Sequence record: PQ671645.1
Length of the DNA stretch: 64,000 nt
Reading direction: 5' to 3' (one strand)
Source of the DNA: Escherichia phage DCP548
Each line of letters begins with the position of its first letter. The first letter of the stretch is position 1. The position numbers were made by a program, and so were the translations under genes. The notes beneath the pieces were generated by a model that did no database searches, was not told the origin of the DNA, and worked only from the letters and a program-made list of their open reading frames with translations. Positions 40,180 through 49,508 of this stretch are shown piece by piece.

Positions 40180-40405
40180 CTCGGTCCCATGATTTGGCCA
40201 TTAATTCGGACATAAATTCTTCAATGCGCGTTTCTTTAGATGGACTTTCACTATTAGAGACCGCAAGTTTGTAATCTGCAATAGGACAGAACATATCAAG
40301 GTCCATATTAAGGTCGTCTTTGATTTTTTCTTCTGACACATCTTTATCGTATGTGTACAGATAACTATCACATGATTCTGATTTAATGTAAATTGCTATA
40401 CTCAT
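40169..40405 (-). CDS. Hypothetical acidic protein
   Basis: Start at the internal ATG (MSIAIYIK) with SD. Confidence 0.35.
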   Translation of the reverse strand: MSIAIYIKSESCDSYLYTYDKDVSEEKIKDDLNMDLDMFCPIADYKLAVSNSESPSKETRIEEFMSELMAKSWDRDDE

Positions 40406-40893
40406 CTCAAATTCCTGCATTCGGTAATAAAACGTTCAACTTCATTATTCTTGGCTTTTATCTTGTCTTTATGTTCTTGTAAACTACTTTTAATAAGATT
40501 AATAATGATGCCTACAGTACCTCCACCAATTATACCGCCAATTATACTTACGATAGTAGATGCTAATAAGATAGCAATAATATCAACAAAACCGAAAGAA
40601 CTCACCTTAGTACTAAAAAACCACACTGATGGTACAAATATAATCCATCCTGTTATCCATTGACACTTATTGAAAAACTTTTCAAGCTCAGCTTGAGTTG
40701 TTCGTATTACTTCATCGATAGGTTGATAACCATTAATATGTCTGTTCACGATAATACCTGCTGGCTGGTCGATTTTAAATTCTTGGCAAATACGTTTCAC
40801 TAAGTAGGATGGACATCCTGTCCAATCCACTGAATAGTACGAAATACCTTCATTGCCGTCGTCAATATTAGACCAATATGTTTTGTTAATCAT
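40402..40893 (-). CDS. Membrane protein with C-terminal ERFITECR tail
   Basis: 163 aa; N-terminal soluble part, two hydrophobic helices, conserved C-terminal motif. Confidence 0.4.
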   Translation of the reverse strand: MINKTYWSNIDDGNEGISYYSVDWTGCPSYLVKRICQEFKIDQPAGIIVNRHINGYQPIDEVIRTTQAELEKFFNKCQWITGWIIFVPSVWFFSTKVSSFGFVDIIAILLASTIVSIIGGIIGGGTVGIIINLIKSSLQEHKDKIKAKNNEVERFITECRNLR

Positions 40894-41580: not shown

Positions 41581-41886
41581 TTATTTTCCTCGACATTCTT
41601 TAACAAAATTTTCTAAATCTGTTGATTCAATAGCTTTTTTACGAGCTTCAGCGTGTTCTTCTTCAGTTAATCTACGTTTAAACTTGACCCAAACATTATG
41701 GTCGAAACCTGTTGTCGCGTATAATAACAGAGCACCAACGAATAACAAAAACGGTGATAAAAATACACAACCAGGAACACCGTCCATGCCATAGGCCTTT
41801 TGTAATACTGCAACAGAAAGCACAGCATAAAAAGGTGATGTAAGTATCGTTAAAAGGCCAATTCGGTTGGTTTCGGATAATTTCAT
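41581..41886 (-). CDS. Small membrane protein with C-terminal ENFVKECR tail
   Basis: Start at the ATG with GAGGAG SD (MKLSETN...); the track start is GTG inside the upstream promoter cassette. Confidence 0.4.
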   Translation of the reverse strand: MKLSETNRIGLLTILTSPFYAVLSVAVLQKAYGMDGVPGCVFLSPFLLFVGALLLYATTGFDHNVWVKFKRRLTEEEHAEARKKAIESTDLENFVKECRGK

Positions 41887-42224: not shown

Positions 42225-43181
42225 TTATTTGAAAGGTTTTACCATATGAAAGTTTTGTTTGAAACGCTTGACGTAATCGTCGTGTCCTAAGCTTTGGTAC
42301 ATACTTACTACTTTGCTATAATTTTCCCAAGCGAACTCACGGAACCATCCTGATGTGATTGATGTACAGACCTTTTCAAGGGCCATCATAAAACTATCAC
42401 GTGGATGGATTTTAAAGTCGTTAGGAATCTGTGAACGTTCAAGAGCTAATACACAAGCTTCTTCATATACACCGGCTAATTTGACCATTTCTGGTAACGA
42501 TTCGAACTTCTCGCGTGAGGTCATGACTTCAGAACCGTCTTTCATATAAAATGTATACGCTGGACGGTCTGTTAGTGCAATGGCTTCATGAATAGTATCA
42601 TGGTCATACGTATAGATGTCATCTTTAAAGAACGCACTTTTAGAAGTGTCAAGAACTGGGTGAGCATAGTTCAAGGTTTCTTTCTGGCGTTTTAGCATAA
42701 TTTCAGTAAGTTCATCGTTCAGTGTAACACCTTTACCACGAAGATACTGAATATGGTTCATAGTCTTTAAAAAGAATGGATTATTTTTCTTGAAACGATG
42801 AGACATCTTAATTGCAAGACATATCTCAGGAGTTGCCCAATAAAACCCGTTCAAACGGTCTTTAGACAAATTTTTCTTGGCGTATTTTAAAAGGTCATAA
42901 GAAGACGTGAAATCTTCAGGAGTGAGTTCACCGACTAATTCACGGACATTAGTGATTGCCGGAACAATATATGCTTCAAAATGAGTTTCGCGTCCATTAT
43001 GGAAGCATTTGAAAACTTGGACATCAGGGTTATCTTGATGAACATATACACCCATCATTTGATTTTTGAATGCATTCCAAGAACCTTGGTCCGCAATAAA
43101 GTCCCAATCGCTATTTTTGATAGCGCTAGAATCAATAAGACCATGATAGTGAAGTGCACGAGAACCAATAACTAACATCAT
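42225..43181 (-). CDS. Nucleotidyltransferase-fold protein
   Basis: 318 aa; N-terminal IGSRALHYHGL-x8-DWDF (GS ... DxD minimal NTase motif). Confidence 0.4.
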   Translation of the reverse strand: MMLVIGSRALHYHGLIDSSAIKNSDWDFIADQGSWNAFKNQMMGVYVHQDNPDVQVFKCFHNGRETHFEAYIVPAITNVRELVGELTPEDFTSSYDLLKYAKKNLSKDRLNGFYWATPEICLAIKMSHRFKKNNPFFLKTMNHIQYLRGKGVTLNDELTEIMLKRQKETLNYAHPVLDTSKSAFFKDDIYTYDHDTIHEAIALTDRPAYTFYMKDGSEVMTSREKFESLPEMVKLAGVYEEACVLALERSQIPNDFKIHPRDSFMMALEKVCTSITSGWFREFAWENYSKVVSMYQSLGHDDYVKRFKQNFHMVKPFK

Positions 43182-43205
43182 AATATTTTCCTCGGATTAA
43201 TTAAC

Positions 43206-43445
43206 TTAAATTTCACGACATGCGATATTATATTCATCCCAGAGGTCGTCATGTGAAGCCTCTACCAATGGAACGATTGTACCGTTTATGTCTTCATTAT
43301 AAGGGCAAATTGTACAGTGCGCATCTTCGAATCGGATGCCTTTGTGTTCAGATTTTTTATAACGCATATCAAATATCTTTGCAAACTTTTCACGAGTAAT
43401 AGTTTTAGCAACTACTTCGGTTCCGATACTTTCGTAATAAATCAT
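43206..43445 (-). CDS. Hypothetical Cys-containing small protein
   Basis: Start set at the ATG with GGAG SD (MIYYESIG...). Confidence 0.35.
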   Translation of the reverse strand: MIYYESIGTEVVAKTITREKFAKIFDMRYKKSEHKGIRFEDAHCTICPYNEDINGTIVPLVEASHDDLWDEYNIACREI

Positions 43446-43473
43446 TGTAGACTCCATTTAATTTGATAGGGCT

Positions 43474-43503
43474 ACTATAACATAGCCCTATCTTGTTGTA
43501 AAC
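43474..43503 (-). promoter_or_regulatory. Early promoter (-35 TTTACA, 17-bp spacer, -10 TATAGT) with 9-bp stem-loop
   Basis: Stem atagggcta/tagccctat differs from the 41903 copy by a compensatory base-pair change. Confidence 0.5.
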
Positions 43504-43507
43504 TGTT

Positions 43508-43705
43508 TTAGCAAGAATAACTAGATGATACCCAGCCTTGAACAGTAATACTATTATTTGATAACGAGATTGCGTCCTGGAGATTCAGACCCGCATTATC
43601 TTCAATCCACAATGTAACTTCTTCACGCTCTTCGGTTGCAATCTGGAACAGGTTTTCCAGGGCAGCTACTGCCGTACGTACAGCACAATCTAATTCACGA
43701 GACAT
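43508..43705 (-). CDS. Small protein with C-terminal GWVSSSYSC motif (paralog family member)
   Basis: 65 aa. Confidence 0.4.
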   Translation of the reverse strand: MSRELDCAVRTAVAALENLFQIATEEREEVTLWIEDNAGLNLQDAISLSNNSITVQGWVSSSYSC

Positions 43706-43714
43706 ATGATTTCC

Positions 43715-43987
43715 TTAACAAGTGTGAGAAGATGCAACCCAACCACCATCTTCAAGGCTCAAGTTGTAGTCGTATTGGTAAACGTCAGCCCATTCAGCAT
43801 AACCGTTTTTTGTACAACGTTCAAGATCGGCTTTAAGATGTCCTGGTGAATGATAGGTTCCACCCATGCCATAAGCTGGATACAAGTCGAATGTTGTGTT
43901 TTGTTTATCAGCAATTTCTTTGGCAGCCTCAATAGCTGCATAGATTTTTGCTACGGCTTCAGCCAGTTCGGTTTGTTCTTTAGACAT
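43715..43987 (-). CDS. Small protein with C-terminal GGWVASSHTC motif (paralog family member)
   Basis: 90 aa. Confidence 0.4.
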   Translation of the reverse strand: MSKEQTELAEAVAKIYAAIEAAKEIADKQNTTFDLYPAYGMGGTYHSPGHLKADLERCTKNGYAEWADVYQYDYNLSLEDGGWVASSHTC

Positions 43988-43996
43988 AATGATTCC

Positions 43997-44302
43997 TTAG
44001 CACAACGCAGAAGACGAAACCCAAGCACCTTCAGTAATAATGTAACCATTACCTTCACGCTTAACATCGCCACCATTATTTTCAATTTCATCTTTCATCC
44101 ACTGGGATACGATTTCACCCTTAGGATAATAAGTACGACCACTACCATAATCACCTACAGAAAATGATACGGCATATTGGTCTGCGATCTTTGTTGCTTC
44201 TTCTTCGATACGTTCAGCTTGATTCAGAAGTTTATAAATTGCATCTGAAGCGGATTTGGCATCATTAAACTCTGGTACTTTAATTTCAATAATCTTACTC
44301 AT
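43997..44302 (-). CDS. Small protein with C-terminal GAWVSSSALC motif (paralog family member)
   Basis: Start at the ATG with AAGGA SD (MSKIIEIKV...). Confidence 0.4.
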   Translation of the reverse strand: MSKIIEIKVPEFNDAKSASDAIYKLLNQAERIEEEATKIADQYAVSFSVGDYGSGRTYYPKGEIVSQWMKDEIENNGGDVKREGNGYIITEGAWVSSSALC

Positions 44303-44657
44303 TTCTACATTCCTTAATAAAGTTTTCGATTGTTTCATTTTCACGTCTAGCTAGGAGTTCATTATAACTAATCATTTGAGAAGCGTAAACCTTTTTATTT
44401 TTCTTGTTATGGTTTATAAAATCGTAGTAAAAATAGACTACAGTACAAAAGGATGCGATGGATGCAAAGGCTTGGGTATACCTTAAGTCCTGCCATTGGT
44501 CTGTGAATCCACCAGTGTTCCCTATAAATCCTAACACAACGCCGTCAATAAGAAATCCAACTAATCCAAAGGCAAATCCCATGCCAATACTCATAATAAA
44601 AATTAGAATGTTCTCACCAAGAGAAGGCCATACGGTTAAGAGTTGAGGCTTTTGCAT
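44295..44657 (-). CDS. Membrane protein with C-terminal ENFIKECR tail
   Basis: 120 aa; hydrophobic helices; conserved tail. Confidence 0.4.
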   Translation of the reverse strand: MQKPQLLTVWPSLGENILIFIMSIGMGFAFGLVGFLIDGVVLGFIGNTGGFTDQWQDLRYTQAFASIASFCTVVYFYYDFINHNKKNKKVYASQMISYNELLARRENETIENFIKECRNE

Positions 44658-45031
44658 CTTATTTCCTTAACAAATTCCATAGCTTCTTCATATTCATACT
44701 TTTTAACAGCTTCATCATACTGAGCTTGGGCTTTTGCGCACTGAACTTTCCATTCTCTTAATCGGGCTCTGTGATGACGTCCTTGGTACCAATATCCCAC
44801 CCAGTTAATAGGCATTAATAAAAACGGTACAATAAGTGGTGCGACGAACATTAATGAAAATGCTGCATCAGACGATATAACTTTATTGGAATCTAAAATA
44901 GCTCCTATAATCATAAAGATTAAAAATGCTAAAGCTAAAATAGGACCAAACAACACTTCATTAGGAATTAATTTACGTTTGTATTCGTATGCCCAGGGCT
45001 TAATTGGCATGTATAGGGTTGGCTTTGACAT
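44636..45031 (-). CDS. Membrane protein with C-terminal EFVKEIRCK tail
   Basis: Start at the internal ATG (MSKPTLYMP...). Confidence 0.4.
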   Translation of the reverse strand: MSKPTLYMPIKPWAYEYKRKLIPNEVLFGPILALAFLIFMIIGAILDSNKVISSDAAFSLMFVAPLIVPFLLMPINWVGYWYQGRHHRARLREWKVQCAKAQAQYDEAVKKYEYEEAMEFVKEIRCKSLNS

Positions 45032-45617
45032 ATTCTCTACATTCCATAATAAATTGCTCAAGGATTAAATTGTTAGTGAAATTAGGACTAACAACCATGG
45101 TTTCATAAAGCGCATCAATAGCACTTAAAGCATCAACTCTCTTAAGCAAAGGCTTGCCTTCATACATAGTTTCAGAATCGACGATTAAAGTGAAGTAGTA
45201 TTTTTTATTATTGACCAGAACTTCTGTATCAATATAAAACATGTTAGACCTTAAAAGCTTGTCTCTAAAGCCTACGTAATCATCTGAACGTTCACTGATA
45301 TAGTCCCATTCAGTGTTTAAACAACAAACAGACCATGTAGGAGCAACGAAATCAGTGAATCTAATATCATGGTCTGCAACTAGTTTAGCAATAGCTCCGA
45401 TATCATGAATCATAATACCTGGGGCTAATAAAGATTTTCGGTTATTTGCATATTCAGTTGTCTCATAAGAAGACGACCAGTACCATTTACGTCCAGTTGC
45501 AACATATCGTAATGAATCAACTAAAGACGTAGGTGGATTTACCTTATCTCGGAACTCTTCGAACATTGAGTCAATATCATTATTTTGGTTTCGCATGTTA
45601 ACTCCTTTATTATCCAA
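45000..45617 (-). CDS. Hypothetical protein with C-terminal EQFIMECR tail
   Basis: 205 aa, soluble. Confidence 0.4.
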   Translation of the reverse strand: MDNKGVNMRNQNNDIDSMFEEFRDKVNPPTSLVDSLRYVATGRKWYWSSSYETTEYANNRKSLLAPGIMIHDIGAIAKLVADHDIRFTDFVAPTWSVCCLNTEWDYISERSDDYVGFRDKLLRSNMFYIDTEVLVNNKKYYFTLIVDSETMYEGKPLLKRVDALSAIDALYETMVVSPNFTNNLILEQFIMECREYVKANPIHAN

Positions 45618-49433: not shown

Positions 49434-49508
49434 TGGTGACCCTGGCTGGTTTCGATCCAGCTACCTATCAGTTATGAGCTGACAGCTCTCCCATTGAGCT
49501 ACAGGGCC
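49434..49508 (-). tRNA. tRNA with anticodon CAU (Met, or Ile if lysidine-modified), CCA encoded
   Basis: Hand-folded cloverleaf: acceptor GGCCCTG/CAGGGTC, D-stem GCTC/GAGC, anticodon stem GTCAG/CTGAT with loop CTCATAA, T-stem GCTGG/CCAGC, 3' ACCA. T-loop ATCGAAA is atypical. Confidence 0.7.

Follow-up and report, generated by a model that had tools for sequence, protein, structure and literature searches.

Tandem small phage proteins with a shared Cys-ended tail are linked to the gene of a MenT-like nucleotidyltransferase

The segment of Escherichia phage DCP548 analyzed here (sequence record PQ671645.1; 64,000 nucleotides, hereafter the window) carries at positions 43508-44302 three tandem genes for small proteins that share a C-terminal tail rich in serine and ending in cysteine, exemplified by GAWVSSSALC. 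Homologs of these genes are found in diverse phages, nearly always upstream of, and on the same strand as, a gene for a 318-amino-acid (aa) protein with a nucleotidyltransferase fold and an intact catalytic triad; in the window, this gene occupies positions 42225..43181, and it and the array are both on the minus strand. The near-obligate linkage points to a previously undescribed two-part phage system, in which the nucleotidyltransferase gene, located outside the coordinates originally reported for the array, is the first functional lead for the small proteins.

The array consists of gene 1 (43997..44302; 101 aa, ending TEGAWVSSSALC), gene 2 (43715..43987; 90 aa, ending EDGGWVASSHTC) and gene 3 (43508..43705; 65 aa, ending TVQGWVSSSYSC), all encoded on the minus strand in one common frame. 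The length of gene 1 is counted from an ATG that overlaps the stop codon of the preceding gene e.3 (ATGAGTAA); the mechanical list of open reading frames (ORFs) extends it to a GTG at 44344. Each of the three ATGs is preceded, at 6-9 nucleotides (nt), by a TAAGGAA-type Shine-Dalgarno sequence. A preliminary description of this DNA had reported three adjacent ORFs ending in GWVSSSYSC, GGWVASSHTC and GAWVSSSALC, and both ORF calling and a six-frame motif scan confirm them at these positions. The tails read QGWVSSSYSC (65 aa), GGWVASSHTC (90 aa) and GAWVSSSALC (101 aa), with the motif and stop codon at 43508..43534 (WVSSSYSC), 43715..43741 (WVASSHTC) and 43997..44023 (WVSSSALC), all on the minus strand. 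The six frames of the window contain the pattern W[VAILM][SAT]S[SH]..C followed by a stop codon exactly three times, and a looser expression for the tail is matched by 3 of the 242 ORFs of at least 40 aa, again these three, where residue shuffling predicts 0.005 matches per window.

The window represents a Mosigvirus (RB69-like, T4-type) segment: over bases 43000-45000, it shares 97.6% identity with Shigella phage Shf125875 and >96% with numerous Mosigvirus genomes from Escherichia. Closely related Mosigvirus genomes annotate the same three coding sequences, each as 'hypothetical protein', between e.3 and the 318-aa ORF (RB69ORF134c), that is, in the e-to-tRNA early region. The products of genes 1 and 2 match the PHROG family phrog_899 (E = 3.5e-22 and 4.8e-19, respectively) through the C-terminal 88 of its 221 positions; orthologs of the former are present in 395 phage records, and the latter is represented in 281. 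The product of gene 3, which is short and devoid of the YG.G core found in the other two, matches phrog_4882 over its full length (E = 1.1e-36) and has orthologs in other genera at the corresponding place in the array. All three ORFs are real genes belonging to one large family restricted to phages. Gene 1 corresponds to RB69ORF139c, which is annotated in the RB69 reference record as a 71-aa protein identical to the 101-aa protein through EIVSQW and then terminating in YEK; this frameshifted or truncated, tail-less version is either a true pseudogene or the result of an error in sequencing or annotation.

The preliminary description held that the Cys-ended tail is fixed at the protein level and set against this the possibility of a conserved overlapping regulatory sequence, in which case homologs would show no synonymous variation. 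Codon usage favors the protein. For the codon analysis, 80 viral loci supplied 219 ORFs with a tail, corresponding to 195 unique proteins; the 142 ORFs with canonical tails yielded 117 distinct tail DNAs. In the latter, the two invariant Ser positions draw on all six serine codons (TCN and AGY), cysteine is encoded by TGC or TGT, and the stop codon is TAA, TGA or TAG. In two of the three window genes, the stop codon does form part of the TAAGGAA Shine-Dalgarno sequence of the next gene, yet no gene start follows the third tail, and the motif is retained in phages with quite different intergenic arrangements. Moreover, no DNA-level repeat was detected among the three genes, which also implies that the duplication is old. 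There is therefore a practically negligible probability that the tails are alike merely because they overlap a signal in the DNA or RNA, be it a ribosome-binding site, a terminator or a promoter, and we rejected this explanation in view of the diverse codons and the lack of DNA repeats.

Because the 219 ORFs had been picked by a regular expression, W, S and C are invariant in them partly by construction; as an independent check, 1.84 billion representative proteins were searched exhaustively with a profile. This search retrieved 626 clusters (50% identity) at E <= 0.001. Of the 150 best matches, 145 were newly retrieved; 144 of these 145 conform to the tail pattern, and in 140 the final residue is Cys. 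With few exceptions, the 150 matches listed extend to the very end of the protein. The motif core can be described as W-x(1-3)-S-S-x(0-3)-C-COOH, usually with a preceding Gly, in which W, S-S and C are constant and the spacing varies; the corresponding family pattern, W-x(1-3)-S-[SD]-x(0-3)-C at the true C-terminus, is present in all three window proteins. Some members contain additional internal or tandem copies of the motif, as in DWLNSSCYGEE...IWYPSSC, DRWESSSEGWESSSEGWVSSSSQC and WNDSGCSYEDEDWNSSTC. The extra copies and the variable spacing are those of a modular linear motif, unlike a purely structural strand.

The preliminary description had suggested a profile search in other T4-like genomes; the family reaches far beyond T4-like phages. 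A word-indexed homolog search had found few relatives of the small proteins (7 and 25), and the exhaustive profile search was needed to reveal them. Nearly all members are small, acidic (median pI of 4.4) and Cys-ended, and they share a common plan: a long N-terminal helix, a short beta sheet, a variable acidic loop and the C-terminal Gly-x-Trp-x-Ser-Ser-Ser-x-x-Cys-COOH. No meaningful matches were found in Pfam, NCBIfam or PADLOC and no recognizable solved fold; weak, below-threshold matches to Peptidase_S78_2, E217_Gp32 and PDC-S49 were discarded. The AlphaFold2 model of the 101-aa protein (predicted local distance difference test score, pLDDT, of 88.9) consists of a long helix (residues 15-43), a small sheet, a short helix and a terminal hairpin, with W94-S96 placed in the last hairpin strand with fair confidence, S97-L100 in a turn and the terminal Cys modelled with low confidence. 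The idea that these are T4 internal proteins targeted to the capsid, prompted by the ipI-ipIII neighborhood, was dropped: the proteins start with MSK or MSR and have no N-terminus resembling a capsid-targeting sequence.

The relatedness of the three bodies was assessed by profile-profile comparison of tail-trimmed subfamilies. Trimmed of their last 10 residues, the 90- and 101-aa subfamilies gave an hhalign alignment with a probability of 99.3% (E = 5e-20) spanning the long helix ending in '..IAD(E/K)..', the 'F.F' strand and 'YG.G.TYYP.G'. The internal core that the preliminary description recognized in these two proteins, YG.G.TY preceded by an '..IAD...F' helix-strand, is borne out by this comparison and by their common match to phrog_899. 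The 65- and 90-aa types give a marginal alignment (probability of 36%, E = 4e-4) limited to the N-terminal helix and first strand, and no relation was detected between the 65- and 101-aa types. Accordingly, the notion of a tandemly diversified paralog family is supported, although the family membership of the 65-aa protein follows from its tail, array position and conserved company. After trimming of the tails, single-linkage clustering by BLAST unites 177 of 198 sequences. Across genera, the paralog types retain both their orthology and their order, GAWVSSSxMC being followed by GGWVSSSxEC, then by the 65-aa WVSSSYxC type, and so on, which indicates that each body is individually maintained and the tail is common to all. 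The size of the set differs between phages: Mosigviruses have a reduced set of three, and the Dhaka-, Kanagawa- and Klebsiella phages have five. In Acinetobacter phage AM101, orf066 (L106, 2200-2376) is an array member with a degenerate, Cys-less tail (VWHNSNWSNSES), located between two intact tail genes and upstream of a gene annotated by the depositors as 'putative nucleotidyltransferase'; immediately downstream there is a gene for a putative ADP-ribosyltransferase.

The association with the enzyme gene was examined from both sides. Among 80 viral loci retrieved with the 318-aa protein, which were picked by pattern-based scans and are not a random sample, 73 have one to six tail ORFs on the strand of the enzyme gene, no more than 3.5 kb upstream of it (ORFs were called by the first-ATG rule, and some are over-extended). 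Five tail-ORF matches classed as 'other' are also upstream and on the same strand as the enzyme, and no tail ORF was found downstream or on the opposite strand in any of the 80 contigs. In every annotated phage inspected, the homolog of the 318-aa protein (E = 1e-77 to 1e-223) follows the tail genes on the same strand; these phages include members of Tegunavirus, Dhakavirus and Kanagawavirus, a Klebsiella strabovirus and Aeromonas phages of Tulanevirus and Ceceduovirus, as well as the unrelated Justusliebigvirus FKP3, with six tail genes, and the jumbo Xanthomonas Mimasvirus XbC2. Conversely, when the search started from small proteins found by profile, the two domains of the enzyme, DUF7277 and DUF7275, were encoded within ~1 kb on every contig with enough downstream DNA (L096, L097, L098, L099 and L101; the others end too early).

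The pair spans unrelated lineages, namely, several Straboviridae subfamilies, Justusliebigvirus, Otagovirus and the jumbo Mimasvirus, and its neighborhood varies: it is found after nrdD, after gp32, near ribonucleotide reductase genes or between e.3 and e.2. The presence of the same pair in different neighborhoods indicates that the module moves as a unit. The enzyme family is present in 733 of 50,697 phage records (~1.4%), and phages of many Gram-negative hosts carry the module (Escherichia, Klebsiella, Acinetobacter, Aeromonas, Pseudomonas, Vibrio, Xanthomonas and Stenotrophomonas). Only five matches to the enzyme were obtained in 185,579 bacterial and archaeal species genomes, all of them on metagenome-assembled contigs that also carry tail ORFs.

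The 318-aa protein consists of DUF7277 (residues 2-101) and DUF7275 (residues 120-305), the only families returned by a Pfam scan at E <= 0.1, with no DUF1814 match; NCBIfam and PADLOC yielded nothing relevant, and searches of the PDB with the single sequence and with a profile gave no match, MenT included. An alignment of 49 sequences with 47-74% identity to the query contains 55 invariant columns, including G6, S7, D25, D27 and E69. G6-S7, D25-x-D27 and E69 form the Pol-beta nucleotidyltransferase signature with an intact catalytic triad, conforming to the hG[GS] ... [DE]h[DE]h ... third carboxylate arrangement of the superfamily and its alpha-beta-alpha-beta-alpha-beta core. In a separate comparison of 14 loci, eight keep all 55 columns, including a 47%-identical Aeromonas phage sequence, and five full-length loci differ at 1-6 of them (6 in the 39%-identical L090); in the sixth differing locus, L059, the N-terminus is truncated, and G6, S7, A9, D25 and D27 are missing. 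As judged from these columns and catalytic residues, the enzyme is active and under strong constraint.

Structural comparison places the 318-aa protein closest to the MenT1 toxin (score of 10.1), followed by ANT(2'') (8.7), TglT/MenT3 (8.5), TM1012 (7.7), MenT4 (7.6) and LnuA (7.2), the similarity to known structures being moderate. Foldseek independently ranks MenT1 first (probability of 1.00, E = 2.6e-3, TM of 0.31/0.47). With its fold resembling that of solved DUF1814/AbiEii/MenT members, the protein is AbiEii/MenT-like by fold and catalytic motif and is not a sequence-level member of DUF1814. The C-terminal DUF7275 domain is large, helical and very highly conserved, with no convincing structural match. 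In DUF1814 proteins, motifs III and IV supply the C-terminal Lys and Asp of the catalytic site (PMC10435456); the phage enzyme has invariant K125, K139 and D195, and D193 is conserved in at least 90% of the sequences, all of these being, at the level of the alignment, candidate counterparts of K137 and D152 of MenT1. The enzyme also contains an invariant segment, K-V-C272-T-S-I-T-S-G-W279 (K270-W279; positions 42368-42397 of the window), in which the Cys-to-Trp spacing equals that of the reversed tail, C-x-x-S-S-S-x-W, and the Ser/Thr content is similar; this likeness is probably a coincidence.

How might the two parts work together? The reading we favor, which remains tentative, is that the tail is the docking or acceptor site of the enzyme, that its Ser is nucleotidylylated or phosphorylated and that the bodies act as effectors. 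The tail is the candidate for the target of the enzyme, being the only invariant element common to all partners of a single enzyme. Modification of Ser is suggested by the structural relatives, which transfer nucleotidyl groups to hydroxyls, the acceptors being the 3'-OH of tRNA for MenT1, MenT3 and MenT4 and drug hydroxyls for ANT(2'') and LnuA; the tail presents an aromatic ring followed by two or three serines in an acidic context that can be likened to the RNA backbone. On this reading, the tail would be recognized by the enzyme and enter its nucleotide/acceptor cleft, where Trp would substitute for a stacked base and the Ser hydroxyls for the ribose 3'-OH, and one tail serine would receive the nucleotidyl (or phosphoryl) group. 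The effector functions would differ among the diversified acidic bodies of the one to six paralogs and would most probably consist in binding host proteins that are basic or that bind nucleic acids. A more elaborate version, slightly less probable but with a realistic chance of being correct, envisages a previously unrecognized phage system of post-translational modification in which the MenT-like enzyme charges the array of small acidic effectors, at the Ser hydroxyls of their universal tag, with a nucleotide or a protein-primed oligonucleotide, or activates Ser for cyclization with Cys, giving covalent protein-nucleotide mimics directed against host nucleic-acid-binding or immune proteins.

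The constant tail joined to diversified, individually conserved bodies, with several partners per single, strongly linked enzyme, could also be accommodated by a different division of labor, whereby the proteins are adaptors or specificity subunits: the tail would tether each protein non-covalently to the enzyme, and the variable body would recruit its own target, a protein or an RNA, for nucleotidylylation. The strongly acidic bodies are ill-suited to RNA binding, though, and there is no precedent for such subunits among MenT/AbiEii-like enzymes, so that we regard this arrangement as quite unlikely.

Several observations weigh against the tail being the docking or acceptor site. First, 7 of the 80 enzyme loci have no nearby tail ORF (L032, L081, L061 and the group of L052, L053, L059 and L080), albeit in L061 tail ORFs do lie upstream, beyond the region scanned. 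The five tail-less loci that were compared (L061 and L053 being left out) retain almost all conserved enzyme residues, L059 being N-terminally truncated; a search for conserved residues lost from the tail-less enzymes found none and hence gave no pointer to a tail-binding site. Second, homologs of the enzyme in actinophages (Streptomyces phage Blueeyedbeauty gp205 and Gordonia phage OneUp gp10) are not accompanied by tail genes and have a different conserved downstream neighbor, so that the enzyme is not strictly dependent on tails. Third, the placement of W94-S96 in a strand of the predicted model leaves room for some of the motif to have a structural role instead of forming a free tail. Fourth, simple nucleotidylylation of Ser leaves the invariant C-terminal Cys unexplained; indeed, none of the readings considered here, favored or otherwise, explains this residue with certainty.

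Finally, the array is separated from the enzyme gene by a hairpin with a 10-bp stem (43465..43492, between gene 3 and the next ORF), the equivalent of which is annotated as a rho-independent terminator in phage SA79RD, and by an overlapping promoter-like sequence, TTTACA-17-TATAGT (43502-43474, minus strand), both sites being consensus matches only, so that the two are not necessarily co-transcribed.

Such observations are compatible with a function of the small proteins that is independent of the enzyme, with the tail being a structural or target-binding element, for example, a last strand combined with a metal- or thiol-dependent contact to a host protein, and the proximity of the enzyme gene reflecting a co-inherited mobile accessory cassette. 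The Trp set in a beta strand of the fold, the tail-less loci with unchanged conserved enzyme residues and the terminator-like hairpin with its promoter-like site would all agree with this view. What makes it unlikely is that the pairing holds across unrelated phage families, in changing contexts and in both search directions, which would be difficult to account for if there were no functional tie, and that tandem and internal copies of the motif speak against a purely structural strand.

As for the actinophage homologs themselves, they are shorter than the window enzyme (251-264 aa) and each is followed by a similar protein of 112-126 aa (YF.K.GYY.S.D..Y.DG...EV.P), which may be a different partner; the two loci are at 3378-4468 of L104 (Blueeyedbeauty gp205-206) and 2429-3600 of L105 (OneUp gp10-11), and the OneUp pair adjoins a tRNA cluster.

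The remaining features of the region concern the surroundings of the module. An ORF for an acidic 83-aa protein (phrog_3723, pI of 4.9; 43206..43457, minus strand) lies between the array and the nucleotidyltransferase gene; a homolog is found at the same place in Edwardsiella phage PEi26, and most other lineages have none. Its restriction to some genera identifies it as an optional component. Upstream of the array, within e.3, there is a second promoter-like sequence, TTTACG-17-TATAAT (44361..44389, minus strand; again identified by consensus match only), at a position corresponding to that of an annotated T4-type middle promoter in SA79RD. A second C-terminal motif, (N/E)-F-[IV]-x-E-C-R, is present near the end of five minus-strand ORFs of the same gene block: 40402-40893 (RFITECRNLR), 41581-41886 (NFVKECRGK), 44295-44657 (e.3; NFIKECRNE), 44636-45031 (e.4; EFVKEIRCKSLNS) and 45000-45596 (e.5; QFIMECREYVKANPIHAN). 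It also ends neighboring genes in the loci of JS10, Yersinia phage fHe-Yen9-01, Klebsiella phage HMGUkp2 and PEi26. The K-E codons of e.3 (AAGGAA) double as the Shine-Dalgarno sequence of the next gene, which makes an explanation by overlapping signals possible for this motif. The sole tRNA gene of the window is a tRNA-Met (CAT) at 49434-49508 on the minus strand; related Mosigviruses have Met and Arg (and Lys) tRNA genes at the equivalent place.

Collectively, the three 'hypothetical proteins' of a hyperplastic T4-type region become part of a defined and testable two-component module. Pfam, PHROGs, NCBIfam and PADLOC hold no functional annotation for the small proteins or for their linkage to the enzyme, and the tail motif offers an easy handle for annotation. 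Literature searches on DUF7275 and DUF7277, the RB69 ORF names, the PHROG identifiers and phage-encoded DUF1814 returned no paper on the module, and a text search for the tail sequence returned unrelated acronyms only. Small, acidic and individually conserved proteins such as these paralogs could well inhibit host defence or proteins that bind nucleic acids. If the tail is indeed an acceptor or docking site, the module would represent both a new phage use of the nucleotidyltransferase chemistry of AbiE/MenT abortive infection and a novel type of short tag at the C-terminus.

The nearest known systems are MenAT1 and AbiE (AbiEi-AbiEii, DUF1814), with which the phage module has the enzyme fold and gene order in common. 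MenT enzymes add nucleoside monophosphates to the 3' ends of tRNA, and their small upstream antitoxins, such as the 68-aa MenA1, occlude the active sites (PMC10435456); in addition, MenA1 induces auto-phosphorylation of MenT on an active-site Thr or Ser (PMC11375011). By analogy with the action of MenA1 on MenT1, the small phage proteins could be antitoxin-like regulators that inhibit the nucleotidyltransferase, the acidic body and tail plugging its electropositive active site with the tail mimicking the nucleotide or acceptor, such that a host-shutoff enzyme is held in check or timed. We consider this somewhat unlikely. As regards the differences from MenAT1 and AbiE, the small proteins have no similarity to MenA1, MenA3 or AbiEi, and they come as one to six paralogous partners with an invariant C-terminal motif. 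The enzyme, in turn, shows 8-12% identity and no DUF1814 sequence match, and is ~120 residues longer, with the very conserved DUF7275 domain. Furthermore, whereas toxin-antitoxin pairs in general consist of one toxin and one antitoxin and are widespread on bacterial chromosomes and plasmids, the module has one to six small genes per enzyme and is phage-borne, being almost absent from bacterial genomes (the five matches mentioned above).

For the favored reading, in which the tail is acted upon by the enzyme, the type VII system MntA-HepT offers a precedent for a partner protein as substrate. In this bacterial and archaeal system, a nucleotidyltransferase of the Pol-beta superfamily (poly)adenylylates a side-chain hydroxyl of its partner, the acceptor being a Tyr of the HEPN RNase; the two form a 1:1 pair. 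The phage partners differ in having no HEPN domain, and the candidate acceptor is the Ser-rich C-terminal tail. Of the structural relatives of the phage enzyme, ANT(2'') and LnuA act on small-molecule antibiotics without partner proteins and are much smaller than the phage enzyme.

The arrangement of several short paralogs upstream of one enzyme, with a C-terminal segment containing Ser and Cys after Gly-Gly or Gly-Ala, is also reminiscent of the arrays that encode ribosomally synthesized and post-translationally modified peptides (RiPPs), for example, lanthipeptide precursors with Gly-Gly leaders, of which there may be several per enzyme. A maturation of this kind would involve activation of a tail Ser by the enzyme through nucleotidylylation or phosphorylation, elimination to dehydroalanine and addition of the terminal Cys to form a lanthionine-type ring. 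It would account for the invariance of both Ser and the terminal Cys in Ser-Ser-Ser-x-x-Cys, and the large, extremely conserved C-terminal domain of the enzyme, which has no assigned function, could be brought into line with it. We regard this as highly improbable. No LanB, LanC, LanM, LanKC or LanL-type, protease or exporter families were found among the Pfam and PHROG families of the neighbors. The bodies are folded domains, and the conserved part is the would-be core, which is invariant rather than hypervariable, and not the leader. The W-to-C and S-to-C spacing varies, even to S-S-C without a spacer. A LanC-like Cys-Cys-His metal site considered for the enzyme was weakened as a candidate by the replacement of one of its presumptive ligands, C243, with Met or Tyr in tail-bearing loci.

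In its overall design, a short invariant C-terminal tag on otherwise different proteins together with one co-occurring dedicated enzyme, the phage module follows the logic of the C-terminal sorting systems LPXTG/sortase, PEP-CTERM/exosortase and GlyGly-CTERM/rhombosortase. Those systems serve the envelope and secretion and rely on transmembrane tags and peptidases, whereas the phage-encoded system is cytoplasmic and acidic, and its dedicated enzyme is a nucleotidyltransferase.

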